Assembly (NCBI GenBank): GCA_945879015.1
Contig: CAMCUO010000005.1
Coordinates: forward strand, 1,306-65,305
DNA length: 64,000 bases
Reading direction: 5' to 3'
DNA from: Chitinophaga pinensis
GTDB taxonomy: Bacteria > Bacteroidota > Bacteroidia > 2-12-FULL-35-15
The position numbers were made by a program, and so were the translations under genes. The notes under the pieces are model-generated. The model was not told the DNA's origin. It was given only the letters and a program-made list of their open reading frames with translations, and did no database searches. Positions 15,044 to 33,304 of this stretch are shown here, piece by piece; position 1 is the stretch's first letter; the number at the start of each line of letters is the position of its first letter.

Positions 15044-15052
15044 TTATCTTTA

Positions 15053-16096: not shown

Positions 16097-16170
16097 TTAA
16101 TAGCTCAGCCTATGTTTTAAGCATTCAATATACAAAGTAATACTTAGGAAAATCTAAAATAGACAAATTA

Positions 16171-16197
16171 TCCCTCTGCTTTTTCAAGGAGAGGGAA
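16171..16197. repeat. Family C mini-palindrome (tccctct-gctttttcaagg-agaggga)
   Basis: Inverted repeat read directly, upstream of the MBOAT operon. Confidence 0.45.
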
Positions 16198-16310
16198 GGC
16201 TGAGGTTTTAAAAGGGCTATTTTTGATTTTCACCTAGTATAAAAGTAACAATTATTCGTTTATTTGAGTATTTTTGAGATATTTGTATAGTATGGTAATG
16301 GGCATAAATT

Positions 16311-18854: not shown

Positions 18855-18888
18855 TATATTTGTTTGTCAAACTTAAAATATAAAAAAC

Positions 18889-19152
18889 ATGCGTGCAGAC
18901 ATTAACGAAATAAAAGAAACAGTAAAGGCGTTCGTTAATAAACGTTTTTTAAAAAATGCTGAAGGGAAAGAATTAAACTATTCAACTCCTCTCATTTCTG
19001 GTGGTATTATTGATTCGATACTTGCTATGCAGTTGGTTGTTTTCCTAGAACAAACCTACAGGTTTGAATTTCAAGCACACGAAGTTGATAAAGATAATTT
19101 AGATAACATCGATATCATTGCAGGGTTTGTTGTAAAGAAGTTGAATGCATAA
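18889..19152 (+). CDS. Stand-alone carrier protein (PCP/DltC-like)
   Basis: 87 aa. GGIIDSILAMQLVVFLE contains the phosphopantetheine Ser. Its 3' end overlaps the adenylase start. Confidence 0.8.
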   Translation: MRADINEIKETVKAFVNKRFLKNAEGKELNYSTPLISGGIIDSILAMQLVVFLEQTYRFEFQAHEVDKDNLDNIDIIAGFVVKKLNA

Positions 19153-20599: not shown

Positions 20600-21747
20600 T
20601 GGAACTTTCCTTATCAACAGAGCAAATGCTTATCCAGGAAAACATTATTGGTTTTGCTCAAAAAGAATTGAATAATAATATTATTGAGCGCGATAAAAAC
20701 CAGCAGTTTTTACCTGAATTATGGAAAAAATGTGCGGAACAAAAACTTACTGGATTACCTGTTGAGGAAAAATTTGGTGGTGCTGGTTTAGATCCTATTT
20801 CTTCTGTTTTAGCATTGGAAGCATTGGGTTATGGCTCCGATGACGGTGGTTTGAATTTTTCTATATGTGCACATTTATTGGCTTGTGTTGTTCCTATCTG
20901 GAAATACGGAAACGAAAATCAAAAGAAAAAATACTTGCCTGATTTATGTAATGGAAAAAAAATTGCTGTAAATGCAATGACAGAAAGCGAATCGGGTTCG
21001 GATGTTTTTAATATTAAAACAACTGCTAAAAAGCAGGATAATGGATTTGTGATAAACGGAACAAAAACGTTTTGTTCAAATGGTCCAGTTGGAGATATAA
21101 TTTTAGTTTATGCGCTTACTGATGAAAGCAAAGGGTATTATGGTGGAATTACAGCTTTCATTGTAGATAAAAATGCAAAAGGATTTAAAGTCGGTCAGAA
21201 ATATGAGAAAATGGGTTTGCGCAGTTCGGGTATTTCTGAAGTAATATTTGAAAATGTTTTTGTTTCAGAAGAAGATATGGTTGGAGGATTTGGTGGTGGA
21301 GCAACGGTGTTTAATCATTCGATGGAGTGGGAGCGAACTGGTATGGCAGCTTTGCATGTTGGAACCATGCGCAAGTTGCTTGAAAAATCAATTGATTATG
21401 TTCAAACACGCAAATCAGGAAATGAAGTAATCGGTAAAAAACAAGCTATCGCTCATCGCATTGCAAATATGAAAGTTCAATTGGAAGCAGCTTCTTTGCT
21501 TACTTATAAAGCTGCATTAGGATTAGAAAAAAATAAAGAGAACATGATTCATGCAGCTTCAGCTAAACTTTTTGTGAGTGAAGCATTTGTTGCTGCTGCG
21601 ATTGATACCATGCAACTTTTTGGTGGAAATGGTTATATGACAGAATACGGTATTGAAAGAATTGTGCGAGATGCTCTTGGAAGTACTGTTTATTCTGGCA
21701 CATCCGATATTCAACGTAACATCATTTCTCGTTTGCTTGGATTGTAA
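20599..21747 (+). CDS. Acyl-CoA dehydrogenase-family flavoprotein, probably acting on a carrier-bound substrate
   Basis: 382 aa with the ACAD fold length. The C-terminal RDALGSTVYSGTSDIQR has Ser where MCAD has the catalytic Glu, and a Glu is present in SMEWER (IVD-like position). Start shares nt 20599 with the adenylase stop. Confidence 0.8.
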   Translation: MELSLSTEQMLIQENIIGFAQKELNNNIIERDKNQQFLPELWKKCAEQKLTGLPVEEKFGGAGLDPISSVLALEALGYGSDDGGLNFSICAHLLACVVPIWKYGNENQKKKYLPDLCNGKKIAVNAMTESESGSDVFNIKTTAKKQDNGFVINGTKTFCSNGPVGDIILVYALTDESKGYYGGITAFIVDKNAKGFKVGQKYEKMGLRSSGISEVIFENVFVSEEDMVGGFGGGATVFNHSMEWERTGMAALHVGTMRKLLEKSIDYVQTRKSGNEVIGKKQAIAHRIANMKVQLEAASLLTYKAALGLEKNKENMIHAASAKLFVSEAFVAAAIDTMQLFGGNGYMTEYGIERIVRDALGSTVYSGTSDIQRNIISRLLGL

Positions 21748-21790
21748 AATATTTAGTATTTTAGCGCTAGTTCTCGATACTACTAAATTT

Positions 21791-23179
21791 ATGAAACTAT
21801 ACGATGTCATCATTATTGGCGGGGGGCCAACAGGTTCAACTGCTGCGACACTTTTAGCTCAAAAAGGGTTAAGTGTTTTGTTGTTAGAAAAAGAATCCTT
21901 CCCAAGAGAACATGTTGGTGAATCATTGATTCCGATTTCTTATGATCAATTGAATAAGTTGGGATTGGTTGAAGAAATGAAAAAAATTTCTAGTCGTAAA
22001 CCTGGAGTTAGTTTTGATGCAAATGATGGTGTGAACCGATCTTTATGGTGTTTTAAAAGTGTTATTAAAGATGAATCATATTTAGCTTTTCATGTTATCC
22101 GTTCGGCATTTGATAAGCTTTTGTTGGATAATAGTAAAAAAGTGGGAGCTGAAGTGAGAGAGCAATACATGGTGAAAAATGTAATTCTTGATAGAGCAGA
22201 TAAAATAGTAGAAGTGCATGCAACAAATGCAGAAGGCAAAGAAGAAAAATTTGAATCCAAATTTATTGTTGACGCAAGTGGACTAAGTACTTTTCTAGGA
22301 AGAAAATTGGGAGTTAAAAAAGCATATGCGGGTTTAGATAGAGTGGCTACTTGGTCGCACTGGACAAACACCGAATTTGATACAAATTTAAAAGAAGGCG
22401 TTATTAAAATTGTTTATTTGGGTGGAGAGAAAAAAGGATGGATATGGGTTATTCCTGTGAGCAAAGAGCATTTGAGCATTGGTGTGGTTGTGAATAACAG
22501 TCATGTGAAAGAAAAGAAAAAGCAATTTCAAGATTCAGAAGATTGGAAAAAAGATTATTATTTGCAGGAACTACAAGAATGTTATTTGTATAAAACGGTA
22601 TTGAAAAACGCTAAGATGGAGCATAAAGTTGCCATGGCTGGTGACTACTCTTATTACTGCGAAAAAAAGTATGGTGAAAATTATGCTTTAGTTGGAGATG
22701 CTGGTGCATTTTTAGATCCTATTTTTTCAAGCGGAATTTTTGTTGGAATGAAGAGTGCTGAATTGGTAGCGGATGGTATTGAAGCGAACCTGAAAGGAAA
22801 AGGGAATGCTGAAATGGACAAAGCTTATGTTAATATCAATGGTGCTGTCAACTTACTTGAAAAATTTATTCGCTTGTTTTATACTCCTGAAGCACTTGAT
22901 TTTTCTAAGATTGGAACTCCAGAAGGACTTTTAATGTTTAAAAAATACGAACAAACATATTCCGTTTTCCATTACTTATTAGCGGGTGATTTTTTCAATA
23001 ATTATGAAAAGTACAGTGAATTTATTGATACCATACGTGATGAGAAGACTATGGCCAAATTCGAAAATTTAATTGATCACGCGCACAGCGCCTTACCTAA
23101 AAGTTGCGGAGAAGATTTTGAAGAAATGTATGGTGAAATGACGCATAAAATTGAGTTTGATCATAAGGCGTTTGAGTAA
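21791..23179 (+). CDS. FAD-dependent halogenase-like oxidoreductase
   Basis: Start taken at MKLYDVIIIGGGPTGS (GxGxxG). Also carries FPREHVGESLIP, GWIWVIP (WxWxIP) and GDAGAFLDPIFSSG. The ORF-track start at 21653 overlaps the ACAD gene and is rejected. Confidence 0.7.
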   Translation: MKLYDVIIIGGGPTGSTAATLLAQKGLSVLLLEKESFPREHVGESLIPISYDQLNKLGLVEEMKKISSRKPGVSFDANDGVNRSLWCFKSVIKDESYLAFHVIRSAFDKLLLDNSKKVGAEVREQYMVKNVILDRADKIVEVHATNAEGKEEKFESKFIVDASGLSTFLGRKLGVKKAYAGLDRVATWSHWTNTEFDTNLKEGVIKIVYLGGEKKGWIWVIPVSKEHLSIGVVVNNSHVKEKKKQFQDSEDWKKDYYLQELQECYLYKTVLKNAKMEHKVAMAGDYSYYCEKKYGENYALVGDAGAFLDPIFSSGIFVGMKSAELVADGIEANLKGKGNAEMDKAYVNINGAVNLLEKFIRLFYTPEALDFSKIGTPEGLLMFKKYEQTYSVFHYLLAGDFFNNYEKYSEFIDTIRDEKTMAKFENLIDHAHSALPKSCGEDFEEMYGEMTHKIEFDHKAFE

Positions 23180-23201
23180 ATAGCATTGTGCACCCATTCG
23201 T

Positions 23202-23325
23202 GAGAGATTGCCACATCCCGCGAAAATGCGGGACTCGCAATGACGCTCTGTTATGTGGTTATCGCTTTTAGAACGTCATTGCGAGGCACGACCCGAGCAT
23301 TCGGGGCGGGATGTGGCAATCTCTC
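23202..23325. repeat. Family A composite palindromic element, second copy, units in swapped order
   Basis: gagagattgccacatcccgcgaaaatgcgggactcgcaatgacgctct, then a 21-nt spacer, then gaacgtcattgcgaggcacgacccgagcattcggggcgggatgtggcaatctctc. It lies between convergent genes. Confidence 0.85.
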
Positions 23326-23349
23326 CAATATTGCGAAGACCAGTCACCC

Positions 23350-24063
23350 TCAAAAAAACCAAGCACTAACATTCATCACAATCTTCCTTCCCCAAGAAGG
23401 AACATGTTTTAAAAAATAAAAATTCTGAAATTTTAATTGCCACCAAAGTGTTGCATTTACTTTAGCACAAATTTGTTTTTTGTCATTTTCAAATTCTTCA
23501 CGTAAAATATCAATAATCAAAATCCACCGTTCATTTTCTGTTTTGTTCCATACTTCATGTTCGTATGCATCACAGAAGGCAAAGAGTTTTCCATTTTTCC
23601 ATGAAATTTGCTCATTTCCAACTCTCATTCCAATTTCCGGTAAGCTATTTTTGCAGTTTAAAGTAAAGTGACATCGATACATCACATTGCTATCACCATG
23701 ATGTGGTTTTATGGAAGTATTTGCATTTAAAATGGAAAACGAAGCATGTGTCATTGCTGGAATGCTTTCGATTATTCTTGTCGTCTCCGGACATTTTTCA
23801 CAATTTTCTTTTTTCTTTTTGCTCCAAACATACAATGGAAAAATAGTCCAGTTCTCTGCTTTGCTGGCAAGTGATTTATTCATGTAAGGAATAATATTTT
23901 TATCCTTTGATTCAACAAGTTTGGTGAATTCTTTTAAAATTAAATCGTAATTGTCTTCAAAAAGAGCCACCCATTTTTTGTCATGGATATCAAAAAAATT
24001 AGGCTCTGGGCCTTTGTAAGCGCTATTCTCTGCAAACGAATACCATTTCTTTGAATTTCCCAT
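23350..24063 (-). CDS. Aspartyl/asparaginyl beta-hydroxylase (AspH/LpxO) family Fe(II)/2OG dioxygenase, paralog 1
   Basis: KPHHGDSNVMYRCHFTL and FCDAYEHEVWN. Confidence 0.75.
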   Translation of the reverse strand: MGNSKKWYSFAENSAYKGPEPNFFDIHDKKWVALFEDNYDLILKEFTKLVESKDKNIIPYMNKSLASKAENWTIFPLYVWSKKKKENCEKCPETTRIIESIPAMTHASFSILNANTSIKPHHGDSNVMYRCHFTLNCKNSLPEIGMRVGNEQISWKNGKLFAFCDAYEHEVWNKTENERWILIIDILREEFENDKKQICAKVNATLWWQLKFQNFYFLKHVPSWGRKIVMNVSAWFF

Positions 24064-24806
24064 TAGTAAACTTTAAATAGATTAACACTTACTATAGCCA
24101 GTCGTGTAAATGGATGTAAACATTTTGCTAAAAACTTAATTGTTCTAGCAGATAATTTTTTAAGAAAAGTATATTTCTGCCATCTCTTTTGTAAAAAAAG
24201 CGAAGTCATTACTGTTGCGCAAATTTTTTCTTTTTCATTTTTAAATTCATCACGCACAACATCCACCACAAAAATAAAACGATCTTTCTCCGAATTATTA
24301 TACGCTTCATGTTGATAGGCATCCATAAACATCAACCATTTCCCATTTTTCCATGGACGAACTTCCTCTTTAACTTTAAAGGCACATTCTGGAAGTCCAG
24401 CCGGAATTTCCAGTCCTAAATGACATCTATAAATAGTATTTGTATCTCCGCAATGTGGATGAATTTTACTTTTTGCTTCTAATAAATTAAAAGAGGAAGA
24501 AGTAATTTCTGGATATTTTTGAATAATGGAATAAGTTATTGGAAAATATTTCTGATTTTTAAACTGTTGAATTCCCCATGTTCTCAGTGGAATTGTTTTC
24601 CAGCTATTTTCACGCGAAACCATTGATTTTATAAAATAACCAATGAGGTTGTCGCTTTTAAGATATTCTTTGAGTTCTTTATAAATGGCTTCGTAATTTT
24701 CTTCAAACTCTTTTGTCCAGCGAAATTCTTCTGGTTTAGTAAAAGGAGCTTCCGTTCCATGATATTCGTCATTTACGTTATATATGTTGTACCAAGCCTT
24801 TTGCAT
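24063..24806 (-). CDS. AspH/LpxO-family dioxygenase, paralog 2
   Basis: HPHCGDTNTIYRCHLGLEIP and FMDAYQHEAYN. Its stop shares nt 24063 with the paralog 1 start. Confidence 0.75.
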   Translation of the reverse strand: MQKAWYNIYNVNDEYHGTEAPFTKPEEFRWTKEFEENYEAIYKELKEYLKSDNLIGYFIKSMVSRENSWKTIPLRTWGIQQFKNQKYFPITYSIIQKYPEITSSSFNLLEAKSKIHPHCGDTNTIYRCHLGLEIPAGLPECAFKVKEEVRPWKNGKWLMFMDAYQHEAYNNSEKDRFIFVVDVVRDEFKNEKEKICATVMTSLFLQKRWQKYTFLKKLSARTIKFLAKCLHPFTRLAIVSVNLFKVY

Positions 24807-24850
24807 CCACTCTTTATTTATTATATTTGTTTTAGTAAAAACTCTAGCAA

Positions 24851-25537
24851 ATGTCTGAATTCGAATTTACAAATAAAAATCCTAAGTTCTTTTATGATTC
24901 TGCTCAGTTTCCTTTTTTGAAGCCATTGCTTGATAATGTTGGGGTTATTCGAAAAGAGTTGCAAGATATTATTGCTTCAGGAAAGGAAAATCAATGGATG
25001 AATACGTTTCCACATTATGTAAAATCTGACGAGCACAAAGCTTGGAAGGTATTTTCATTTTTGTTCTTTAATATGAAGCTTCCCAACAACGCAAAATTAT
25101 GTCCGAAAACGGCTGAACTCATTTATTCTATTACAGAGATTCTTTCTTGTGATTATTCTTATATGAATCCAGGAACTCATGTGCTGCCTCACAAAGGTTA
25201 TTCACGAATGGTTTTACGTTGTCACATTGCTTTGATTGTTCCAGATGAGGAACTTTGTGCTTTACGTGTTGGAAATGAAATTAAACATTGGAAAGAAGGC
25301 GAACTTATAATTTTTGATGATTCATTTGAACATGAAGCATGGAATAGATCCGACAAAAGAAGAGTTGTTTTAATGTTTGATATTCCAAATCCCCTTTGGG
25401 GATATACTGCTCATGAAATTTCAAAATATAAAATTGATAAAATTGATGATCCTTTTCTTTTATCGATGGCTCCCAAAGATGAATGGATAAAAGCGTTTGA
25501 AAAAGGAATTTTTCCTTTGGAGAGTTTTAAAGATTAA
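24851..25537 (+). CDS. AspH/LpxO-family dioxygenase, paralog 3
   Basis: LPHKGYSRMVLRCHIALIVP and FDDSFEHEAWN. It is divergent from paralog 2 across a 44-bp spacer containing TATATTTG (24821-24828). Confidence 0.75.
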   Translation: MSEFEFTNKNPKFFYDSAQFPFLKPLLDNVGVIRKELQDIIASGKENQWMNTFPHYVKSDEHKAWKVFSFLFFNMKLPNNAKLCPKTAELIYSITEILSCDYSYMNPGTHVLPHKGYSRMVLRCHIALIVPDEELCALRVGNEIKHWKEGELIIFDDSFEHEAWNRSDKRRVVLMFDIPNPLWGYTAHEISKYKIDKIDDPFLLSMAPKDEWIKAFEKGIFPLESFKD

Positions 25538-25602
25538 ATTTTGGTTGAGAATTGTTATATAGTCAATTGATTAAAGGTATTCTCAGCTTAAATGGTTCTG
25601 AC

Positions 25603-26526
25603 TTATTTCTTCTTCACAAAAACTTTCTTCACCAAACCAACCGCTTTCTCAACAACTAAACCTACAATAATTCCAGCAAGGACACAGGATAGTGCTTTTA
25701 TAAACCAGGCCAAAGCAGACATGTTAGCCAAAGTGTGTTCGAGATCGTGAATTAAATTGGCAGAAAATTCAAAGCCGTGAGCAATGATTTCTGCACCCAC
25801 CCAAAGCATGGCTGCGGTACCCACATAACTCAAAATTTTTAGGAAATGCGGCATGAACCTGACAAGACCAAGTCCGAATTTTTGCAGGACAGGATGAAAT
25901 TTATCCTTGGCTAAGTGAAGTCCTATGTCGTCTGCTTTAACAATCAATCCAACAAATCCGTAGACTGCAATAGTAATAAAAACACCAACAGCCAGCATCA
26001 CCAAAATCTGCTTCATCATTGGCTGGTCGGTGACATAACTATAAGCAATGGCAATAATTTCTGCGGAGAGAATAATGTCAGTGCGAACCGCACCTGTAAT
26101 CCTTTCTTTTTCCAATTCATCTGGCGTGATGACTTTTACTTCATCCATTGTTAGAGGCAGATCAGGATGTTTGCTAAACATTGAATGCAACTTTTCGTAC
26201 CCTTCGAAACATAAATAAGCTCCACCTAACATTAAAATTGGTGTGATTGCCCAAGGAGCTAAGTACCCGAGCAACAAAGCTGCAGGAGTTAAAATAAGAA
26301 GTTTATTTATGAGAGATCGTTTGGCAATCCTGTAAATGATAGTTAGTTCACGTGATGGATCGAGTCCAACAACGTACTTTGGCGTAACGGCTGTATCGTC
26401 AATGACAATGCCCGAAACCTTCCCGCTAGTTTTGATTACCTGTGCAGGTACATCACTCAAGTTGGCTGCAGTTGTTTTTACTAAAGCTGAAATATCATCT
26501 AAAAGTGCAAAAAAACCCGAAGCCAT
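25603..26526 (-). CDS. DUF808 (YedI-like) inner-membrane protein
   Basis: 307 aa, polytopic, with N-terminus MASGFFALLDDISALVK typical of the family (recalled, not searched). Confidence 0.55.
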   Translation of the reverse strand: MASGFFALLDDISALVKTTAANLSDVPAQVIKTSGKVSGIVIDDTAVTPKYVVGLDPSRELTIIYRIAKRSLINKLLILTPAALLLGYLAPWAITPILMLGGAYLCFEGYEKLHSMFSKHPDLPLTMDEVKVITPDELEKERITGAVRTDIILSAEIIAIAYSYVTDQPMMKQILVMLAVGVFITIAVYGFVGLIVKADDIGLHLAKDKFHPVLQKFGLGLVRFMPHFLKILSYVGTAAMLWVGAEIIAHGFEFSANLIHDLEHTLANMSALAWFIKALSCVLAGIIVGLVVEKAVGLVKKVFVKKK

Positions 26527-26584
26527 ATGCTATAATTTTGCTAATGTGTACATATTGAAATCGATGCAGGTGATTTTTTTCGAT

Positions 26585-27196
26585 TTAGAGCAAAGCATTT
26601 ATCGCCTCCATATTCTCATCACAAACTTCACCGCTAAATTTTAATTCCGCATTTTGATCGCTCAAAATTGCAGCAGCTTTATTTAGTTTTGCACCAATTG
26701 TTTTGTAGTCATCCACGTGCAATTCGTATAATTGATTGTCCACATGCTCTTGATCTGACAGTAATTTGTAGCCAAGTAACTTGTTGTAATGAATGGCTCT
26801 ATCATTGTCGCTCAATATTCTGATACGAGAAATTTTGCTGACATTTAATTTTAAAAACATAAAATTCAAAAGACACAATGTTGCAAAAACGGCTGCAAAG
26901 GAGCTGATGTAGTCTTTGTCACTAATAAAAATTCCTCCTTCGCCAAATCCTAAGCCTACATCATAATTTTTTGCATTGATGAGTCCAACTTGTTTGCCTT
27001 CAAATTCAATAATAAAATAATAATTGTTTCTGTTGTTTACGGATTTGAACCAAATTTTTTGAGCTTCAGGTGTAATGAAATTACGGTATTCCATGTAATT
27101 AGCAATATCACTTTGGTTTCTCCAATTACGAACCATCTCAATATCTTTTTCTTGCACTCTTACAAGCCGAACGCCATATTGTTCAAGAACTAACAT
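26585..27196 (-). CDS. GNAT-family N-acetyl/acyltransferase (PseH-like size)
   Basis: 203 aa with an N-terminal RLVRVQEKDIEMVRNWRN typical of sugar-N-acetyltransferase GNATs. Start overlaps the GT2 stop. Confidence 0.6.
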   Translation of the reverse strand: MLVLEQYGVRLVRVQEKDIEMVRNWRNQSDIANYMEYRNFITPEAQKIWFKSVNNRNNYYFIIEFEGKQVGLINAKNYDVGLGFGEGGIFISDKDYISSFAAVFATLCLLNFMFLKLNVSKISRIRILSDNDRAIHYNKLLGYKLLSDQEHVDNQLYELHVDDYKTIGAKLNKAAAILSDQNAELKFSGEVCDENMEAINALL

Positions 27197-28107
27197 ATGA
27201 TTTCGTCTTCGTTATAGGAAGGCGCATTGTTCAAAGCTTTTAACATCTGACTTATATATTGTGCGACAATTCCAATGCAGAAAATAATTATACCTGTAGA
27301 AAAAAGAATACTTACAATCAAAGAAGTATAACCTTCCACATCAATTTTTAAGTAAAACTTTTTAATGATGTAAAAAATTCCAATAATGAAATTGATAGTA
27401 GCTAAACTAAATCCAATATAGGTTACCAATTTTAATGGTAGAGTAGATGAAAACATGATGATGGTAGAAGTCATCTTAAACAATCCTGCTACTTTGTAAC
27501 GTTGCTTATGTATGTAATCAGGATTTGCATTTACATCTACAAAGGCTAATTTTTTTGTGTACCATAAACACAATTCATCAATAAAAACAAATTGTTTGTG
27601 ATTGTGTACCAACTTATCAGTCAGTGATTTTTTTAATAATCTAAAACTGCTTCCTTTTCCTTTTTGTGGGCCTTCCAGCTTTGCTAGTATTTTATATGCT
27701 CCAGAAAAAATTCCTCTAAAAAAAGGTTGATTTTGTTTTGGATACAATCCATAAACCAGATCAGCATTTGTATTTTTTTGATTATCGATTAGCTTTTGAA
27801 TTTCTGAAGGGTGAACTTCTAAATCATCATCAATGGTAATAACAAAATCTCCTTTCGCATGTTTGAAGCCACAAACAGTAGCTCCGTGCTGACCGAAATT
27901 TTTACTTAAGCGAATAATGGTTGTGTTGGATGAACTTGCTTTTATTTTTTTTAATACTTCCCAGCTATTGTCGGTACTACAATCATCCACAAAAATAATT
28001 TCGTAGGAATATTTGTTTTCAAAAAATGAAACAATGCTTTGGTGCACCTTCTCAAGTGCATTTTCAGAACCATAAACTGGAATAACTATGCTATAGTTTG
28101 TGCTCAT
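27190..28107 (-). CDS. Family 2 glycosyltransferase, polyprenyl-phosphate sugar transferase type (ArnC/GtrB-like)
   Basis: IVIPVYGSE...IIFVDDCSTDNS, a DxD in TIDDDLEVH, and two C-terminal TM helices. Confidence 0.75.
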   Translation of the reverse strand: MSTNYSIVIPVYGSENALEKVHQSIVSFFENKYSYEIIFVDDCSTDNSWEVLKKIKASSSNTTIIRLSKNFGQHGATVCGFKHAKGDFVITIDDDLEVHPSEIQKLIDNQKNTNADLVYGLYPKQNQPFFRGIFSGAYKILAKLEGPQKGKGSSFRLLKKSLTDKLVHNHKQFVFIDELCLWYTKKLAFVDVNANPDYIHKQRYKVAGLFKMTSTIIMFSSTLPLKLVTYIGFSLATINFIIGIFYIIKKFYLKIDVEGYTSLIVSILFSTGIIIFCIGIVAQYISQMLKALNNAPSYNEDEIIC

Positions 28108-28847
28108 ATTTTACTATTTAAAAGTAATCCACCATCCATTTTTATAACTGTTCCAGTAATTCTTTTTGATGCGGCACTTAATAAAAACGCAGCAGTATTT
28201 GCAACATCAATTGGTTCACTTATTCCAAGTGGGTAACGACTTTCAATTTCTGCAAATTCTTCTTTTGAATAAATTTGCTCTGCTTGTTCCAAAATTTTTG
28301 TCCGAACCAGACCAGGAGCAATGGTGTTTACTCGTATTTTTTTAGAAGCTGTTTCCAAAGCCAATCCTAAAGCAAAAGACTCTAATGCAGCTTTTGATGC
28401 AGTATAAAGCGAACCTCCCGTGTATGGATGATTTGCAGAAATGGATGAAATGAAAACAACTGATGCTTCGTTATTTAATTTTTTTGCAGATAATAATCCA
28501 CTACTCAGCAATACAGCCGATGAAAAATTTATTTTAAAAAGTTCATCAATGTGTCTTGATTTTAAAAACTTTATTGGAAGTGGATTGATAATTCCAGCAC
28601 AATGAACGAAACCATCAATAGCAGGTATTTTAGAAATCAAATAATTAATTTCCTCTTCGTTTGACAAATCAGCAATAAAAAAGCCTGCTTTATTTTTTAA
28701 TAATGCTTTTGTTTTATTTAATTCATCAGCATTGCGACCAGTGATAATGATATTAGCACCCAAAGAATCACACAATTGCGCAGTTGCTCTTCCTATTCCA
28801 GAAGTAGCACCAGTCACCAAAATTGTTTTATTCTCAAGCTCTGTCAT
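28104..28847 (-). CDS. Short-chain dehydrogenase/reductase (FabG-like ketoreductase)
   Basis: VTGATSGIGRATA and YTASKAAL (YxxxK). Confidence 0.8.
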   Translation of the reverse strand: MTELENKTILVTGATSGIGRATAQLCDSLGANIIITGRNADELNKTKALLKNKAGFFIADLSNEEEINYLISKIPAIDGFVHCAGIINPLPIKFLKSRHIDELFKINFSSAVLLSSGLLSAKKLNNEASVVFISSISANHPYTGGSLYTASKAALESFALGLALETASKKIRVNTIAPGLVRTKILEQAEQIYSKEEFAEIESRYPLGISEPIDVANTAAFLLSAASKRITGTVIKMDGGLLLNSKI

Positions 28848-29892
28848 ATTCTAAAAGTTTTGTATAAACATTTTCGGTTTCTAAAATAACACTTCCCCAG
28901 GAATATCCAACTCCGAAACCACTCAATAACAAAGATAATTTTTTTGTTCGTAATGCTTCTTTCATTTTGTAGCACATGGTTAATGGAATAGAAGCGGAGC
29001 TAGTGTTCCCAAAAACATCTATAGAATAAGGCACTTTTTCAAGATCTATTTTTAATTTTTTTCTCACACTTTCGTTGATGAGCTTGTTGGCTTGATGCAT
29101 AACGAAGTAATCTGTATTCTCTTTTGATTTATTACTTTTTTCATAAAGTGTAGTAATATTTGAAGCCGCTTCTTTCAATGCAAAATTAAAAACATCCATT
29201 CCATTTAAAATCAAATGCTTTTTTGCTCTACTAATTCCTGGTTCAATTTCTACTAAATCTTCCAATGTTTTATCAAACGGTGTTCTGCAACTTCCATGTT
29301 CAATTATGATTGCATTTTTTCCGGAGCCATCGCTTTGTAAATTAAAATGCATTTCATTTTTAGTTTGTGAATGCTCTATCAATGTTGCGGTTCCTGCATC
29401 TCCAAAAAGTGGATAAGTGCTTTTATCGGTATATGTTGTAGATGTAGATGACTTATCTCCAACTATCAATAAGCCTTTTTTTAATTGTCCGCTTTGCATT
29501 AAGTTGGTGATTACCGACAATCCATAAACATATCCAGAACAACCTAAGCTGATATCAAATGCGATACAATCTTTTTTTAATCCTAAACGGTTTTGTAATA
29601 AAATGGAAGTCGCTGGTAAAATATAATCGGGTGACTGAGAAACAAAAATCAGGACATCAATTTCTTCAGCACAATTATATTTATCTAATAAATGTTTAGC
29701 TGCTGTAAAACATAAATCGGAGCAAGCAACATCTTTAGCGGCAACTCTTCTTTCTTTTATTCCAGTAGTTTTTGCAAATAATTCTCTTTCCTCAACTGAA
29801 ATATGATTGTAATCGGCAGTTTTTTCTATGTGAGTTGGCACACAGCTGGAGATTGCAATAATATTCGTTTTAGTAGTAGATAGATAGGCCAC
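28834..29892 (-). CDS. KAS III (FabH)-like ketosynthase, copy 2
   Basis: Cys-His-Asn triad contexts: SLGCSGYVYG, MHQAN, GNTSSASIP. Confidence 0.8.
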   Translation of the reverse strand: MAYLSTTKTNIIAISSCVPTHIEKTADYNHISVEERELFAKTTGIKERRVAAKDVACSDLCFTAAKHLLDKYNCAEEIDVLIFVSQSPDYILPATSILLQNRLGLKKDCIAFDISLGCSGYVYGLSVITNLMQSGQLKKGLLIVGDKSSTSTTYTDKSTYPLFGDAGTATLIEHSQTKNEMHFNLQSDGSGKNAIIIEHGSCRTPFDKTLEDLVEIEPGISRAKKHLILNGMDVFNFALKEAASNITTLYEKSNKSKENTDYFVMHQANKLINESVRKKLKIDLEKVPYSIDVFGNTSSASIPLTMCYKMKEALRTKKLSLLLSGFGVGYSWGSVILETENVYTKLLEYDRA

Positions 29893-30129
29893 TTATTTTA
29901 ATTTTTCGATAGTAATATTATAAAGATCTTGGATTGTTTGTGCCGATTTTAAATCAGCGCCATTTAATAATGCATTAAAATTCGCATCAATGTATGCAAT
30001 GATAATTAAGGCATGCATACTGCTCCAACCTTTTATACTTCTAAAGTTTGTAGCGGAGCTAAGAGTCCCAGGTTCTAAATCTTCAAATTCAACTTCTAAA
30101 CCTTTCGTAAATTCTTCTATGCTATTCAT
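29893..30129 (-). CDS. Acyl carrier protein
   Basis: 78 aa. KGWSSMHALIIIAYID has the Ser attachment context. It abuts the downstream KASIII with no gap. Confidence 0.7.
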   Translation of the reverse strand: MNSIEEFTKGLEVEFEDLEPGTLSSATNFRSIKGWSSMHALIIIAYIDANFNALLNGADLKSAQTIQDLYNITIEKLK

Positions 30130-30165
30130 AAATGTAAATATATTAAAATATACAATTCAAGATGA

Positions 30166-31179
30166 CTATAGCTCAATAATGGTTGCACCCCAAGACAAAC
30201 CGACTCCAAATCCTGCGAGTAATATTTTTTGTCCTGGTTTTGCTTTTCCTGATTTAATGGCTTCACTTAATGTAATGGGGATGCTTGCAGCAACTGTGTT
30301 TCCAACACCTGCCATGTAATTAAAAACTTTTTCCTCCGGAATTTTCATTTTTGTTCGTATGGAATTAATCAAAAATAAATTCGCTTGATGAAAAATAAAA
30401 AGATCAACGTCTTCGATATTTAATTTTTCTTTCGCCAATAAATCTTTAATCATTGCTGGAACAGTTTTTAATCCAAAATGAAAAACTCCAGCACCGTCCA
30501 TGTGTAAATTAGCATCGGTAGTCACATTTCCGTGTTCATTTTCTATTTCAATAAAAGAATTTTTTGAAATTGGATTTCTTGCACCACCATCTCTGATGAT
30601 AATTTTTTCTGCCATTTTTCCATCTGTTCCAAAAACGAATGAACTAATGTTAGCATTTTTTTTACCAGACGAAATGAGCGTTGCAGCTGCACCATCACCA
30701 AAAACAAATTTTGAACTTCTATCTTTTTTATGAATATTTTTTGTGAGTGTTGAAGAAGTAATTAGCAAAACATTTTTCAATCCCAAAGACTCAATCATTC
30801 CTTTTGCCATCCCTAATCCATATACAAATCCGCTACAACCTAAACTGTAATCCATTGCTCCAGCATTTATTGGAAGCCCTAATTTTGCTTGTATGATAGA
30901 GGCAGAGGCAGGAAACATGTAATCAAACTCCAAAGCACAAAAAAGTAAAAAATCAATTTCTTCAGGTTTAACTTTGTGTTCTTTGAAAAGTGCTAATGCT
31001 GCTTTAACAGCAAGATCAGAAGCTGTTTCATTTTTAGCTACTATATGCCTTTCAACAACTCCAATTCTTGCATAGTTTTCTTTTTGAGAAACAGTTGCAG
31101 GAAAAGCTTTGAAAAAATCTGTATTACTATAGATTTTTTCGGGAAGATAATAACTGATAGCTTTTATGAATGCCGACAT
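30166..31179 (-). CDS. KAS III (FabH)-like ketosynthase, copy 1
   Basis: SLGCSGFVYG, FHQAN, GNTVAASIP. Confidence 0.8.
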   Translation of the reverse strand: MSAFIKAISYYLPEKIYSNTDFFKAFPATVSQKENYARIGVVERHIVAKNETASDLAVKAALALFKEHKVKPEEIDFLLFCALEFDYMFPASASIIQAKLGLPINAGAMDYSLGCSGFVYGLGMAKGMIESLGLKNVLLITSSTLTKNIHKKDRSSKFVFGDGAAATLISSGKKNANISSFVFGTDGKMAEKIIIRDGGARNPISKNSFIEIENEHGNVTTDANLHMDGAGVFHFGLKTVPAMIKDLLAKEKLNIEDVDLFIFHQANLFLINSIRTKMKIPEEKVFNYMAGVGNTVAASIPITLSEAIKSGKAKPGQKILLAGFGVGLSWGATIIEL

Positions 31180-31309
31180 CTTTGTAAAATGAATAGAAAA
31201 TATTTAAAAAGTGTTTATGACAATTTTCGAATTAAAAGTACAAAAATACTTTCTCATCTTGGGAAAAACTTAATTATATTTGGTGGGTAAAGAATTGTAT
31301 AGAATTTCA

Positions 31310-33304
31310 ATGAAAAAGAACAAAGTAAAGGAAGCCCCTAAGCCTGAAAAAAAGATTGTTGAAAACGTGTTCAGTGAAAAAAAATTGAATCGTAGAATAA
31401 TTTTATTTTTTGTGCTTTTATGTTTTTTGGTTTACGGGAAAAGTATCAAGAATAATTATTCTATGGATGATGAGTTTGTTGTTAGAAATAACCAACAAGT
31501 TCAAAGAGGAATTGAAGCAATACCTGAAATTTTTAGAACAACCTATGTTGTAAATAGTCAAAAATCGAACTACGAATATCGTCCAATTGTTAAAGCATCA
31601 TTTGCGTTAGAGTGTGAGTTTTTTGGAGTAAATCCACATGTTAGTCATTTCATAAATGTGTTGCTTTATACTTTAGCGATAGTATTGCTTTACATGACTC
31701 TCAAGGCTTTACTGTCGAAATACAATATACTTCTTCCTTTTATAATTACGACTTTATTTTTGATTCATCCATTGCATTCCGAAGTTGTAATAAGCATTAA
31801 AAATAGAGATGTTATTTTAAGTTTTACAGGATTTATTCTTTCCATATTCTTTTATTTAAAATTCATTGAAACAAAAAAATATTATCACTTATTTTTCGGA
31901 GTATTTTTTATTCTTTTTGGATTGATGTCTAAAAAAGATGCGATGACCATTGTTGCTATTATTCCCTTTACTCTTTGGTTTTTAAAAGATGTTTCTTTCA
32001 AACGAATGATTCCAATTTTTATTTCTTACATATTTCCAATTCTCATTTATCGATTTGCAAACAAAATTGCGAATCATAATTTTTCGAGAAAAACATTGGA
32101 TTGGGAAAATCCTTTATATCTGGGTTCAACTTTAGCGGATCGTATTCCGAGCGGATTTTATAGCATTTATTTTTATCTAAAAATGTTTTTAATTCCGCAT
32201 CCGCTTGTTTCCTACTATGGCTACAATCAAGTGCCTATAGCTACTTGGTCGAATGCAATTGTATGGATTGTTTTAATCGGATTAATAGGCGTAGGTTATT
32301 ATGTAATTAAAAATTTCAAAACAAAAGGAATTGAAATTTTTGGAATTCTATTCTTTTTAGTAACCATTTCAATGTTTACAAATGTGTTGGTTCCAGTTGT
32401 AGGTATTGTAGGTGAGCGATTTGCATTTATTCCATCACTAGGATTGTGTTTTATATCAGCTTGGGCTTTGTTTAAAGGTTTTAAAATTGCTTTTGAAAAC
32501 AAAGAATTGAAATTTCCAGCACTTTCAAGTCCGATTTTCGTGACTTTAGGTTTAGTTGTTTTGCTATTTAGTATCCGTTCATTTGTTAGAATAAAAGATT
32601 GGAAGGATACATTTACTTTGTATCAAACAGATGTTAAAAATGCTCCAGAATCGGCTCATGCCAACTCATTGATAGCAGCAGCATCCATTCAAAAGATTAA
32701 GGAAAATGAAAAAATGAGCATAAATCAGAAACGATTTTATGTTCAAAATGCGGAAAAATACTATTTAGAATCCATTCGCATTATTCCAGACTACATCTCT
32801 TCCTTAAACAATTTGGGAATGATTTATTACACCTATTACAATCAGCCTGAAAAGTCGATTCCCTATCTTAAAAAGGCAATATCATTAGATACAAATTATG
32901 TGGAAGCATACTTTAACTTAGCGACTTGTGAAGCAAAGGGGAAAAACTATGTTGAAGCAGAAAAACATTACCTGAAATCAATAGAAATTGACTCCAATTT
33001 TGTGAGCACTTATTTTTCATTAAGCGCCATGTATGCGGAAGAAAAGAAGTATGATGAAATTTTAAAATTGAATCAAAATGCTATAGATAAAGGGGTTAAG
33101 GCAGATGTATTGCATGTGAATATTGGTAATGTTTATTTCATGAGAAAGGATACAATTTCTGCAGTACCGCATTTTGAAGAATGCATACGTTTGAACTCAA
33201 ATAACAGGTTTTTGAACTCGTTTTTGGCCAATTATTTCAAAGAAAAGGGTGATTTAGTGAAAGCGAACAAATATTATGACTTGATGGGGGCTTCAAAACG
33301 TTAA
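31310..33304 (+). CDS. GT-C-like polytopic membrane protein (PMT/ArnT-like) with C-terminal TPR repeats
   Basis: About 11 TM segments. An acidic first-loop motif YSMDDEFVV follows TM1. The C-terminal roughly 200 aa hold TPR repeats (NNLGMIYY..., AYFNLATCE..., TYFSLSAMY...). ATG at 31310 is preferred over the GTG at 31280. Confidence 0.65.
   Translation: MKKNKVKEAPKPEKKIVENVFSEKKLNRRIILFFVLLCFLVYGKSIKNNYSMDDEFVVRNNQQVQRGIEAIPEIFRTTYVVNSQKSNYEYRPIVKASFALECEFFGVNPHVSHFINVLLYTLAIVLLYMTLKALLSKYNILLPFIITTLFLIHPLHSEVVISIKNRDVILSFTGFILSIFFYLKFIETKKYYHLFFGVFFILFGLMSKKDAMTIVAIIPFTLWFLKDVSFKRMIPIFISYIFPILIYRFANKIANHNFSRKTLDWENPLYLGSTLADRIPSGFYSIYFYLKMFLIPHPLVSYYGYNQVPIATWSNAIVWIVLIGLIGVGYYVIKNFKTKGIEIFGILFFLVTISMFTNVLVPVVGIVGERFAFIPSLGLCFISAWALFKGFKIAFENKELKFPALSSPIFVTLGLVVLLFSIRSFVRIKDWKDTFTLYQTDVKNAPESAHANSLIAAASIQKIKENEKMSINQKRFYVQNAEKYYLESIRIIPDYISSLNNLGMIYYTYYNQPEKSIPYLKKAISLDTNYVEAYFNLATCEAKGKNYVEAEKHYLKSIEIDSNFVSTYFSLSAMYAEEKKYDEILKLNQNAIDKGVKADVLHVNIGNVYFMRKDTISAVPHFEECIRLNSNNRFLNSFLANYFKEKGDLVKANKYYDLMGASKR

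Follow-up and report, generated by a model that had tools for sequence, protein, structure and literature searches.

A described system with a comparable cassette is the O-polysaccharide (O-PS) locus of Flavobacterium psychrophilum, in which Qui2NAc4N is acylated with a 3,5-dihydroxyhexanoyl group (PMC6519341). An earlier note on the DNA analysed here had named such an amide from a Flavobacterium O-antigen, and this proved to be right. The genes wfpC (KASIII, 333 aa), wfpD (ACP, 76 aa), wfpE (KASIII, 350 aa) and wfpF (ketoreductase, KR, 242 aa) were predicted by the authors to make this group, and by published annotation the cassette abuts an amino-sugar N-acyltransferase (PMC6519341). A capsule locus of B. 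fragilis encodes PglC-like and PglD-like proteins, ACP76, KAS351, KR250 and KAS349 together with DegT, Wzx and EpsG; here the cassette abuts the PglD-like amino-sugar N-acyltransferase. The acyl-chain module has already been predicted in polysaccharide loci of fish-pathogenic and gut Bacteroidota. New at the present locus are the delivery route and its neighbouring genes, for which there is no earlier description.

We analysed a 64-kb stretch of DNA (the window) of an uncultured member of the Bacteroidota. Its ORF listing contains seven minus-strand ORFs between 25603 and 31179:

30166..31179, minus strand, KASIII paralogue 1, first gene of the operon (337 aa; ACP_syn_III, ACP_syn_III_C)
29893..30129, minus strand, dedicated ACP (78 aa; W-S-S-M motif)
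28834..29892, minus strand, KASIII paralogue 2 (352 aa; GTG start; ACP_syn_III, ACP_syn_III_C)
28104..28847, minus strand, FabG-like SDR ketoreductase (247 aa; adh_short, adh_short_C2, KR)
27190..28107, minus strand, polyprenyl-phosphate GT2 of the GtrB/ArnC/DPMS type (305 aa; Glycos_transf_2; two C-terminal hydrophobic helices)
26585..27196, minus strand, GNAT N-acyltransferase of the PseH/FdhC-like nucleotide-sugar type (203 aa; Acetyltransf_3)
25603..26526, minus strand, DUF808 (YedI-like) inner-membrane protein (307 aa; DUF808 E 8e-105)

The comparison with Wfp covers gene order and size, in which the first four proteins agree (337/78/352/247 versus 333/76/350/242 aa). When the neighbourhood was compared with O-antigen and capsule loci, as the earlier note had suggested, homologous cassettes were found in the B. 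fragilis capsule locus (ACP, KAS351 and KR at about 36-46% identity) and in operon L089 of a Flavobacterium sp. The latter encodes GT2, GNAT, ACP, KAS, a Rieske oxygenase, KR, KAS, DegT and a PMT_2 GT-C, and contains one-for-one homologues of all six genes from KASIII paralogue 1 to GNAT (31-51% identity). Overall, the closest homologues of the cassette in isolate genomes lie in capsule/O-antigen-type loci, alongside genes for DegT, PglC/PglD, Wzx and Wzy.

Acyl-chain enzymes and operon structure

The Cys-His-Asn triad, described before as intact in both FabH-like enzymes, held on alignment: Cys112, His244 and Asn274 (E. coli FabH numbering) were invariant in both paralogue families. KASIII paralogue 1 is 37% identical to paralogue 2, 47% to Flavobacterium KAS337 and 35% to B. 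fragilis KAS349. Paralogue 2 belongs to a large subfamily of proteins of about 350 aa and shares 51% identity with Flavobacterium KAS359, 46% with B. fragilis KAS351 and 29% with E. coli FabH. The ketoreductase shares 40-41% identity with its counterparts in the two homologous cassettes (B. fragilis, Flavobacterium). The earlier note had named loss of a key residue or membership in a dialkylresorcinol (DarB-type) pathway as findings that would speak against its reading. The DarB pathway was rejected on scores of 49 and 25 bits, where the cut-off is 550; DarB and StlD/DarB models together gave 25-54 bits at cut-offs of 450-550.

The 78-aa protein had no match in Pfam or NCBIfam. A profile built from 23 orthologues nevertheless matched solved ACPs end to end (2lml, the best, E 3.7e-4; 2ehs; 1vku), and Ser37 in the W-S-S-M motif was invariant and aligned with their phosphopantetheine serine, in agreement with the original ACP assignment. 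It shares 36-37% identity with the ACPs encoded in the cassettes from B. fragilis and Flavobacterium, and the WSS motif is common to all of them.

The junctions read from the sequence were as noted before: a 36-nt gap, 0 nt (the TAA of the ACP gene is followed at once by the GTG of KASIII paralogue 2), overlaps of 14 nt, 4 nt (ATGA, SDR to GT2) and 7 nt, and a 58-nt gap between GNAT and the start of the DUF808 gene downstream. The domain calls for both KASIII enzymes, SDR, GT2, GNAT and DUF808 also stand on profile matches. No terminator-like site was found in 25300-31500, which is compatible with one transcript across the operon, although this is weak evidence in Bacteroidota. Genes for a dehydratase, an enoyl reductase, an aminotransferase or nucleotide-sugar synthesis were found neither in the operon nor among the scanned ORFs of the window, and the latter included no nucleotidyltransferase gene.

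GT2, GNAT and conservation of the gene order

The GT2 aligned end to end with GtrB (5ekp, 1e-33) and ArnC (9hwj, 9bhc, 8vxh). ArnC and PgfS models covered its full length, with scores far under their cut-offs. The GNAT gave a weak match to the PseH model (51 bits, cut-off 93). In Foldseek, its AF2 model (pLDDT 85.7) retrieved PseH (4ri1, 3.6e-10), FdhC (5kta/5ktc) and, at similar scores, polyamine acetyltransferases, SpeG ranking about as high as PseH. FdhC is a GNAT that was solved with its product 3-[(R)-3-hydroxybutanoylamino]-3,6-dideoxy-D-galactose.

In 78 of 79 related loci, GNAT is immediately preceded by GT2. Among the 60 loci with enough upstream DNA, 40 repeat the order KAS-ACP-KAS-SDR-GT2-GNAT, representing about 40 species-level MAGs, and most of their junctions fall in the range from -14 to +4 nt. 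Such order and tight spacing indicate an arrangement beyond chance. The close relatives are all uncultured MAGs. The remaining 20 of the 60 loci have no KAS/ACP/KR genes within 10 kb. With about a third of GT2-GNAT loci lacking the cassette, there is no strict bond between the GNAT and this ACP, and the family can work without it, perhaps on an acyl-CoA.

The conserved unit thus comprises six genes, KASIII-ACP-KASIII-KR-GT2-GNAT. The seven-gene unit proposed earlier describes the layout in the window correctly, but of the loci fetched through GNAT, L009 is the only one besides the window that has DUF808 after GNAT. The seven-gene limit therefore belongs to the lineage and not to the system, and by this gene-order comparison DUF808 is a lineage-specific appendage and no part of the core.

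The divergent GT-C gene and the surrounding cluster

The operon does not stand by itself. The earlier note had missed a divergent GT-C gene and the surrounding conserved cluster of about 20 kb (13872-33304), of which the operon is a part:

31280..33304, plus strand, TMTC-like GT-C glycosyltransferase (674 aa; TPRs at the C-terminus), divergent from the operon
24851..25537, plus strand, Fe/2-oxoglutarate hydroxylase, Asp_Arg_Hydrox, OlsC/LpxO-like (OlsC 132.6 bits, LpxO 98.4 bits, both below cut-offs)
24063..24806, minus strand, OlsC/LpxO-like hydroxylase (profile match)
23350..24063, minus strand, OlsC/LpxO-like hydroxylase (profile match)
21791..23179, plus strand, FADH2-dependent halogenase (CndH, Mpy16, CmlS, Bmp2, PltA; GxGxxG and WxWxIP motifs)
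20599..21747, plus strand, PigA/RedW-like dehydrogenase (PigA 418 bits, RedW 381 bits)
19145..20599, plus strand, adenylation enzyme (meets the AA-adenyl-dom model; PltF 2.9e-80)
18889..19152, plus strand, PCP (weak PP-binding match; GGIIDS motif)
16311..18854, plus strand, fusion of a DltB-like MBOAT with an SGNH domain (847 aa)
15053..16096, minus strand, PAPS-type sulfotransferase 2 (Sulfotransfer_3, Sulfotransfer_1)
13872..14999, plus strand, PAPS-type sulfotransferase 1 (Sulfotransfer_3, Sulfotransfer_1)

The TPRs of the GT-C protein span residues ~490-670, and a DD pair (D63, D64) in its N-terminal membrane domain is invariant among orthologues. Six of the 16 orthologues matched TMTC_DUF1736 (5e-8) and six PMT_2 (5e-6). 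A GT-C/TPR gene was found no more than 10 kb away in 23 of 28 full loci with the KAS cassette versus 2 of 11 without it. In two loci, L080 and L059, the GT-C gene abuts KAS1 and is co-directional with it; in L050, L064 and L075 a plus-strand GT-C gene has its end near the same position. Several relatives encode a giant secreted PKD/Ig/CHU_C protein next to the GT-C gene. Translation of the window gene could alternatively start from an internal ATG at about 31310.

The hydroxylase at 24851-25537 is the paralogue found with GT2-GNAT in nearly all cases, and 72 of 75 loci have one or more hydroxylase genes downstream of GNAT. Sulfotransferase 2 carries the PAPS-binding motifs GRSGTT and RDYRD...S, and among solved structures it comes nearest to TPST1/2 and the CurM sulfotransferase; both window sulfotransferases matched NoeE weakly. 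The adenylation enzyme, PCP, PigA-like dehydrogenase, halogenase and MBOAT-SGNH fusion form a Dlt-like module. In the fusion, N305, H348, S621, N658 and H818 are invariant; its AF2 model (pLDDT 84) matched DltB, HHAT and PORCN in the N-terminal half and SGNH esterases in the C-terminal half (Foldseek). Source annotations of its homologues read DltB/AlgI or SGNH hydrolase, and a family member sits in a Wzy-type polysaccharide locus of Rhodocaloribacter. The fusion is present in 11 of the 14 full loci with the dehydrogenase.

A candidate pathway and its alternatives

We consider it fairly probable that the six genes (31179-26585) and the GT-C gene (31280-33304) encode a periplasmic glycosylation pathway by which an N-(hydroxyacyl) amino sugar is added to a surface molecule. 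Each of its steps, and with them the identities of acyl chain, sugar and acceptor, we infer from homology or gene context. Housekeeping FabD would malonylate the dedicated ACP; the cluster contains no FabD gene. One KASIII would then condense acetyl-CoA with malonyl-ACP, and the ketoreductase would yield 3-hydroxybutyryl-ACP. Going by the genes present and by the precedent in F. psychrophilum, the second KASIII would add another C2 unit and the same ketoreductase would generate 3,5-dihydroxyhexanoyl-ACP, the hydroxyl groups staying in place because there is no dehydratase or enoyl reductase. Judging from its fold and from the Flavobacterium operon with DegT, the PseH/FdhC-like GNAT would acylate the amino group of a nucleotide-activated amino sugar whose synthesis would be encoded elsewhere in the genome. 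By homology, the GtrB/ArnC-type GT2 would load the N-acylated sugar onto undecaprenyl phosphate; acylation and loading could also occur in reverse order. A putative flippase would move the lipid-linked sugar across the membrane (none of the GtrA, ArnE/F or Wzx type was recognised). The TMTC-like GT-C with TPRs is probably the final transferase, passing the sugar to a periplasmic acceptor; its TPRs, like its TMTC/PMT signature, favour a protein over LPS or another glycan. Before export, the OlsC/LpxO-like dioxygenases and the PAPS sulfotransferases probably add hydroxyl and sulfate groups to the acyl chain or to the sugar, although these roles are guesses. The sequence proposed earlier, from a short hydroxyacyl chain via the GNAT to an amino sugar loaded by the GT2, gained comparative support from Wfp, B. 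fragilis, L089, the GNAT fold and the GT2 alignment; a strict tie of GNAT to ACP did not. Against the preferred pathway speak the lack of sugar-supply genes among the scanned window ORFs and the scores of GNAT and GT2, far under the PseH and ArnC equivalog cut-offs. The 20 loci without the cassette, the lack of a recognised flippase and the SpeG scores in the fold search count against it as well.

The same route to an undecaprenyl-phosphate sugar might instead end on lipid A/LPS core (Arn-like) or on an O-antigen/capsule chain (Gtr-like). The GT2 alignment with ArnC and GtrB fits such an acceptor, as do the neighbouring hydroxylases, whose nearest matches OlsC and LpxO act on lipids, and the homologous Flavobacterium GT-C of L089, which has CBM60 instead of TPRs and adjoins Wzx and Wzy genes. 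We regard this as unlikely, however, given that the window GT-C has TPRs, that its orthologues match the signature of TMTC protein O-mannosyltransferases and not ArnT, that ArnA, ArnB and ArnD are absent, and that the giant secreted protein adjoins the GT-C gene in several relatives. An Arn-like version would amount to a charge or permeability modification, a Gtr-like one to decoration.

Distinctly less can be said for a GNAT that uses acetyl-CoA or another acyl-CoA while the KAS/ACP/KR product goes elsewhere, possibly as a longer 3-hydroxy fatty acyl chain that housekeeping FAS II enzymes help to make and that ends in a lipid, such as an aminolipid modified by the OlsC-like hydroxylases. That a third of GT2-GNAT loci are without the cassette, that the hydroxylases resemble OlsC and LpxO, and that chain length is not fixed by sequence would agree with such a diversion. 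Yet the KAS2-SDR-GT2-GNAT junctions overlap by 4-14 nt and these overlaps are conserved, the same cassette abuts an amino-sugar N-acyltransferase in B. fragilis and, by published annotation, in F. psychrophilum, and two KASIII enzymes with one ketoreductase fit a C6 dihydroxy product. The elongating KASI/II needed for a long chain is absent, as is an OlsB-, OlsF- or GlsB-type acyltransferase; we hold this reading to be improbable. Very improbable, finally, is a secreted natural product of the halopyrrole-polyketide or dialkylresorcinol/flexirubin-like kind, with the KASIII enzymes extending a pyrrolyl or other starter and GT2, GNAT and sulfotransferases tailoring a small molecule. The adenylation enzyme, PCP, PigA-like dehydrogenase and halogenase do lie 3 kb off, the sulfotransferases are distantly like that of CurM, whose substrate is a beta-hydroxyacyl-ACP, and dialkylresorcinol (DAR) and flexirubin clusters typically have KASIII enzymes. 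But besides the low DarB and StlD/DarB scores, a DarA-type cyclase, thioesterase and dehydratase are absent, and the pyrrole-type module occurs in 13 of 28 full loci with the KAS cassette, so that most are without it. Moreover, this module mostly travels with MBOAT-SGNH, whose family sits in the Rhodocaloribacter locus, and the nearest isolate homologues of the cassette belong to capsule/O-antigen-type loci.

Anatomy and conservation of the operon

The operon occupies the minus strand of the window between 31179 and 25603 and is flanked by a divergent gene on the plus strand, which closes a larger cluster (13872-33304):

30166-31179, minus strand: first KASIII protein (KAS1)
29893-30129, minus strand: 78-aa putative acyl carrier protein (ACP)
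28834-29892, minus strand: second KASIII protein (KAS2)
28104-28847, minus strand: SDR-type ketoreductase (SDR/KR)
27190-28107, minus strand: GT2 glycosyltransferase
26585-27196, minus strand: GNAT acyltransferase
25603-26526, minus strand: DUF808 protein
31280-33304, plus strand: GT-C protein (674 aa) with C-terminal TPRs

The earlier note had described the seven minus-strand genes as one translationally coupled operon, and inspection of the sequence returned the same reading frames and the same six junctions: a 36-nt gap, a TAA stop running into a GTG start, a 14-nt overlap, an ATGA, a 7-nt overlap and a 58-nt gap. Pfam and NCBIfam searches likewise agreed with the proposed gene identities (two KASIII, SDR/KR, GT2, GNAT of the Acetyltransf_3 family, DUF808). 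No terminator-like hairpin was detected within 25300-31500 by a terminator scan, and an Rfam scan added nothing.

Homologues of the GNAT with 60-99% identity were numerous in metagenomes. A GNAT scan with one genome per species yielded 80 loci, all from uncultured Bacteroidota (Crocinitomicaceae, Lishizhenia, Vicingus, Flavobacteriales and unclassified Bacteroidia); cultured relatives comprised only more distant Flavobacterium, Bacteroides and Rhodocaloribacter loci. We compared the GNAT-derived loci by tblastn, employing all cluster proteins as queries. The GT2 gene was located immediately upstream of GNAT in 78 of 79 loci, usually with an overlap of 4-7 nt, and at least one Asp_Arg_Hydrox gene followed GNAT downstream in 72 of 75 loci, those without KAS genes included. 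KAS2, ACP and SDR were present in 40 of the 60 loci with sufficient upstream DNA, and their junctions mostly ranged from -14 to +4 nt. The cluster was syntenic in four of the related loci (L004-L006 and L084).

Among the loci fetched through GNAT, DUF808 followed GNAT only in the window and in L009, where the order is GT-C / KAS1-ACP-KAS2-SDR-GT2-GNAT-DUF808 and unrelated genes come next. In the nearest syntenic relatives (L004, L005 and L006), GNAT converges directly on a hydroxylase gene with no DUF808 in between. Because DUF808 is not conserved after GNAT, we define the conserved operon as six genes, and DUF808 appears to be an addition in the lineage of the window. Its distribution (only one other related locus) also lends no support to DUF808 as a core component or as a flippase. 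The earlier interpretation was largely supported by the comparison of loci, but its boundaries were drawn wrongly: the seventh gene falls outside the conserved unit, and the divergent GT-C gene had been overlooked.

Loci without the KAS/ACP/KR cassette (KAS- loci: L037-L046, L048-L049, L051-L058 and similar ones, mostly from Crocinitomicaceae and Lishizhenia) represent a smaller version of the cluster. They contain GT2-GNAT together with one or two hydroxylases, and many also have two sulfotransferases; all of these are found in L042. Most of them have no GT-C within 10 kb. A 525-aa protein upstream of GT2 in L042, at first taken for a TPR-less GT-C, is an unrelated, secreted protein.

Identity across the cluster was uneven in two of the syntenic relatives. 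In L005, identity to the window is 81-94% for most cluster genes but 75% for GNAT and 73% for KAS1. L004 shows the opposite tendency, with a GNAT 84% identical to that of the window. Such a mosaic would fit recombination or diversifying selection acting where acyl specificity would be determined, as in serotype loci.

The proposed acyl-building cassette and its precedents

Both KASIII proteins retain the residues for catalysis that the earlier note had ascribed to them: Cys112, His244 and Asn274 were invariant in both families in alignments that included E. coli FabH and six orthologues of each protein. Neither protein reached the cut-off of the housekeeping FabH model TIGR00747 (257.8 and 233.2 bits, cut-off 292.1), and both passed only the broad subfamily model NF006829 (278.7 and 253.6 bits versus 249). 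In a library-wide search, KAS2 fell into a large subfamily of KASIII proteins of about 350 aa with 37-51% identity, whereas E. coli FabH shared only 29%. The 20 representatives that we looked up came from Flavobacterium sp., B. fragilis, Cloacibacterium and Nonlabens, none from F. psychrophilum. A dialkylresorcinol (DarB-type) pathway, which the earlier note had named as an alternative identity, can be dismissed on scores of 49 and 25 bits against NF053539 (cut-off 550) and 54 and 33 bits against the StlD/DarB family model NF005293 (cut-off 450). HMG-CoA synthase identity was also ruled out by the scores.

The 78-aa protein had no Pfam or NCBIfam match at any threshold, and hhalign against E. 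coli AcpP alone gave a weak result (probability 6.7%). A profile built from 23 orthologues, by contrast, matched solved ACPs end to end in a PDB profile search (2lml with E 3.7e-4; also 2ehs and 1vku). Ser37, which lies in a W-S-S-M motif at a helix start and is invariant among the 23 orthologues, aligned on the phosphopantetheine site of these structures. Given the invariant serine and the end-to-end matches, we assign the protein as an ACP of divergent type.

Two priming-type condensing enzymes with one ACP, one KR and no dehydratase would be the gene count for a C6 3,5-dihydroxy acid. This count is common to the window and to cassettes from F. psychrophilum, B. fragilis and Flavobacterium. 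The earlier note had mentioned a Flavobacterium O-antigen with a 3,5-dihydroxyhexanoyl amide, and the statement is correct: 3,5-dihydroxyhexanoate is the N-acyl substituent of Qui2NAc4N in the F. psychrophilum O-polysaccharide (Cisar et al. 2019, PMC6519341). Synthesis of the acyl group has been assigned to wfpC (KASIII, 333 aa), wfpD (ACP, 76 aa), wfpE (KASIII, 350 aa) and wfpF (reductase, 242 aa; sizes from Table S1 of that study), and its transfer to wfpG, a PglD homologue, as predictions from genetics and NMR and not from enzymology (PMC6519341).

Acyl modules like that of the window have been predicted before in published work. By order and size, both cassettes read KASIII-ACP-KASIII-KR, with 337, 78, 352 and 247 aa in the window, and their paralogues have diverged to a similar extent (33% identity between WfpC and WfpE, 37% between KAS1 and KAS2). 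Both lack a dehydratase and an enoyl reductase, and both are followed by a putative amino-sugar N-acyltransferase. This enzyme, however, is of the PglD type with a left-handed beta-helix in the Wfp locus and a GNAT in the window. Delivery differs as well: the Wfp sugar enters a Wzx/Wzy O-unit via PglC, whereas the ArnC/GtrB-type GT2 and the GT-C of the window would imply a single sugar on undecaprenyl phosphate. Among the window ORFs scanned, we found no PglC, PglE, PglF, Wzx or Wzy gene.

Homologous cassettes were found in two further settings. The capsule locus of B. fragilis (L086-L088) encodes Wzx, DegT, glycosyltransferases, EpsG, a PglC-like and a PglD-like protein, ACP76, KAS351, KR250 and KAS349, with a second DegT further on. 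ACP76 carries the same WSS motif and a C-terminal TIQDLYN, and identities to the window are 36% for ACP, 46% for KAS2, 40% for SDR and 35% for KAS1. A Flavobacterium operon (L089/L090) comprises an RmlC-like protein, an SDR epimerase, GT2, GNAT, ACP74, KAS359, a Rieske oxygenase, KR249, KAS337, DegT and a PMT_2 GT-C that carries CBM60, and Wzx and Wzy come next. It thus holds homologues of all six window genes (GT2 31%, GNAT 33%, ACP 37%, KAS2 51%, SDR 41%, KAS1 47%) and, judged by gene content, appears to show the same logic from end to end. Both cassettes are ordered ACP-KAS-KR-KAS, unlike that of the window. B. fragilis further differs by its PglD-like acyltransferase and Wzx/EpsG, and Flavobacterium by its own DegT aminotransferase, which the window does not have, by the Rieske oxygenase where the window cluster has Asp_Arg_Hydrox enzymes, and by CBM60 instead of TPRs on the GT-C. 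The Rieske-type oxygenase gene (L089, 11070-12158) lies between KASIII and ketoreductase genes. Its product may be a functional counterpart of the window hydroxylases. The presence of this gene within the operon hints that pathways of this type regularly include hydroxylation. Our literature search found no experimental study of the B. fragilis or the Flavobacterium locus.

N-hydroxyacyl amino sugars, such as those with 3,5-dihydroxyhexanoyl groups, shape the O-antigen serotypes of F. psychrophilum and also occur in the V. cholerae O100 O-antigen. We know of no characterised enzyme from the KASIII-ACP-KASIII-KR route, and the locus and its relatives offer a defined protein set for reconstitution. 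The acyl-building module seems to be reused with three different partners, combining PglD-type or GNAT acyltransferases with Wzx/Wzy or GT2/GT-C delivery.

Predicted acyl transfer, loading and periplasmic delivery

The AF2 model of the GNAT (pLDDT 85.7) matched PseH best in a Foldseek search (4ri1, E 3.6e-10, TM 0.63-0.71). FdhC, a nucleotide-sugar GNAT solved with its N-(3-hydroxybutanoyl) amino-sugar product, was among the top dozen matches, and SpeG polyamine acetyltransferases scored similarly. The fold is common to PseH, FdhC and the window GNAT, but sequence identity is just 18-20%, and the PseH model TIGR03585 was not reached (51 bits, cut-off 93.1). A conserved C-terminal extension of about 45 aa sets the window GNAT apart from PseH and FdhC, and the donor predicted for it would be acyl-ACP instead of acyl-CoA.

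The GT2 is predicted to be a polyprenyl-phosphate glycosyltransferase. Residues 4-303 align with GtrB (sll0501, 5ekp) and three ArnC structures, the catalytic domain (residues 3-173) aligns with archaeal dolichol-phosphate mannose synthase, and two hydrophobic helices are found at the C-terminus. ArnC and PgfS models were matched over the full length, although the ArnC equivalog NF007986 gave 118.8 bits versus a cut-off of 529. The window ORFs scanned included no ArnA-, ArnB- or ArnD-like gene, and the locus does not qualify as an Arn pathway.

The GT-C consists of an N-terminal multi-pass membrane domain of about 470 aa and a C-terminal third of TPRs. The aspartate pair D63, D64, which would fit the acidic residues that GT-C enzymes carry in their first periplasmic loop, is invariant among orthologues, of which 6 of 16 match TMTC_DUF1736 (5e-8) and 6 of 16 match PMT_2 (5e-6) in Pfam, while the membrane domain of the window protein itself stays below Pfam thresholds. 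By sequence, that domain had no PDB match, and a full-length search returned TPR matches only. Of 28 full loci with the cassette, 23 had a GT-C gene within 10 kb, versus 2 of 11 loci without it. It is co-directional and abuts KAS1 in L080 and L059, and in L050, L064 and L075 a plus-strand GT-C ends at about the same position. The GT-C frame starts at a TTG (31280), and an in-frame ATG ten codons downstream (about 31310, MKKNK...) is a plausible true start; with it, the divergent intergenic region measures about 130 nt, not 100 nt.

Three-component periplasmic glycosylation is known from GtrA/GtrB/GtrC, ArnC/ArnE-F/ArnT and PgfS/PgfM. Like these systems, the window pairs a putative polyprenyl-phosphate GT2 bearing a C-terminal membrane hairpin with a GT-C, and together with the cassette they would form a GtrB/ArnC-type scheme with no recognisable flippase: the cluster contains no small dedicated flippase (GtrA, ArnE/F), and DUF808 is its sole membrane protein without an assigned role. 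As in the Arn pathway, the amino sugar would be N-acylated before or around the loading step. The predicted acyl group, however, is a synthesised hydroxyacyl chain and not formyl, and it would stay on the sugar because no deacylase is seen. In contrast to the GT-C enzymes of the three-component systems, that of the window is TMTC-like with TPRs. It shares with TMTC1-4, the eukaryotic protein O-mannosyltransferases, an N-terminal multi-pass GT-C domain, the DUF1736 signature and C-terminal TPRs, but it is bacterial, its family attains the signature in only the six orthologues and not in the window protein, and its predicted donor is an undecaprenyl-phosphate N-acyl amino sugar instead of dolichol-phosphate mannose.

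In view of the TPRs and the TMTC signature, a protein is the more probable acceptor. An Arn- or Gtr-like modification of LPS in place of protein is a plausible alternative and would leave the chemistry unchanged. That the operon makes a secreted natural product is unlikely: the DarB scores are far too low, a cyclase and a thioesterase are absent, and the named relatives of the cassette sit in polysaccharide loci. The GNAT might also act uncoupled from the ACP, as the 20 of 60 loci without the cassette would suggest, but the overlapping junctions are conserved, and acyltransferases adjoin the cassette in F. psychrophilum and B. fragilis as well.

If the acceptor of the GT-C is a protein, the system would represent TMTC-type glycosylation in a bacterium, with an unusual acylated sugar. 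A giant protein with a homologous N-terminus (N-terminal parts 58-73% identical) adjoins GT-C in L001, L004, L008, L010 and L084, and PKD/Ig/CHU_C domains (type IX secretion) were recorded in it in L001 (1-3309) and L084 (1-3142). It might be a target of glycosylation. Beside the GT-C gene of the window, the ribosomal rpsL operon takes its place. In several relatives, a small secreted ORF also lies beside GT-C along with the giant protein. Literature searches yielded neither a bacterial TMTC-like enzyme nor a cluster combining these parts. What would be new here is that an acyl module is coupled with a GNAT, a GtrB/ArnC-type GT2 and a TMTC-like GT-C, and also that it apparently sits amid hydroxylases, sulfotransferases and a Dlt-like module with a halogenase. 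Our functional assignments, here and throughout, draw on homology and gene context.

The surrounding cluster

Downstream of the operon, the cluster comprises the following features:

23350-25537: three Asp_Arg_Hydrox Fe/2-oxoglutarate hydroxylases, closest to OlsC and LpxO, below model cut-offs
13872-16096: two PAPS sulfotransferases, the second with PAPS-binding motifs and with TPST and the CurM sulfotransferase as its nearest solved structures
16311-23179: Dlt-like module, consisting of
an MBOAT-SGNH fusion, 847 aa (AF2 pLDDT 84), N-terminal half similar to DltB, HHAT and PORCN, C-terminal half similar to SGNH esterases
a PCP, 87 aa
a stand-alone adenylation enzyme, matching PltF (2.9e-80) and, better, the second-module adenylation domain of LgrA (residues 1223-1712, 3e-119)
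a dehydrogenase, PigA 418 bits (cut-off 500) and RedW 381 bits (cut-off 650)
a halogenase, true start ATG 21791, with GxGxxG and WxWxIP motifs, FADH2-dependent, carrier-substrate class

The hydroxylases and sulfotransferases have no signal peptides; their probable substrate is the acyl chain or the sugar, on the cytoplasmic side of the membrane. Hydroxylase and sulfotransferase numbers could not be matched, since counts per locus were too variable and flanks cut loci off.

In the MBOAT-SGNH fusion, N305, H348, S621 and H818 are invariant; the protein had no PDB match by sequence. Its family is large and occurs in cultured Rhodocaloribacter litoris within a Wzy/sulfotransferase polysaccharide locus. 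Variant clusters encode a separate MBOAT and a protein of about 300 aa, without carrier-protein genes. Relatives of the halogenase include CndH, Mpy16, CmlS, Bmp2 and PltA. With a stand-alone adenylation enzyme and a carrier protein beside a DltB-fold MBOAT with an SGNH domain, the module has all parts of a Dlt system. Its PigA/RedW-like dehydrogenase and carrier-substrate-class halogenase resemble the halopyrrole cassette PltF/PltL/PltE/PltA. We know of no Dlt system with a dehydrogenase or halogenase, of no halopyrrole pathway that ends in an MBOAT, and of no description of an MBOAT together with halopyrrole-cassette enzymes. From its domains and models, we read the module as a candidate Dlt-like O-acylation step on an exported glycan, in which the acyl group may be (halo)pyrrole-2-carboxylate.

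The whole of 13872-33304 could form one composite surface-decoration machine, in which the GT-C glycosylates secreted proteins and the Dlt-like system esterifies the glycan with a (halo)pyrrole-2-carboxyl group, although we consider this improbable. The sugar would then be a polyhydroxylated, sulfated N-acyl amino sugar and the targets possibly type IX secretion adhesins, and the Dlt-like step would take place outside the membrane with the pyrrole acyl carried on the PCP. We are aware of no case in which an MBOAT decorates a glycoconjugate of the bacterial cell surface with a halogenated pyrrole ester. Judging by the linked hydroxylases, sulfotransferases and carrier-protein/MBOAT module, uncultured Bacteroidota that are abundant in freshwater and soil would modify their surfaces with sulfate esters and perhaps pyrrole esters. 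Such chemistry could influence how these bacteria adsorb phages, resist grazing and adhere.

The ORF at 13441-13851 encodes a secreted 136-aa protein without a family match and lies immediately upstream of the first sulfotransferase gene. Small secreted ORFs adjoin GT-C in L001, L002 and L084, with no evident similarity to 13441-13851 upon inspection. As conserved precursor peptides they were rejected, since the ORFs at 13441-13851, in L001 (136 aa) and in L002 (128 aa) showed no convincing likeness by eye. Features with no link to the operon are:

1191-2549: tyrosine recombinase of the phage integrase family, near the window start
54089-54850: TylF-like O-methyltransferase
55115-55188: a single tRNA gene
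55746-58109: PorZ-like type IX secretion component with a CHU_C domain
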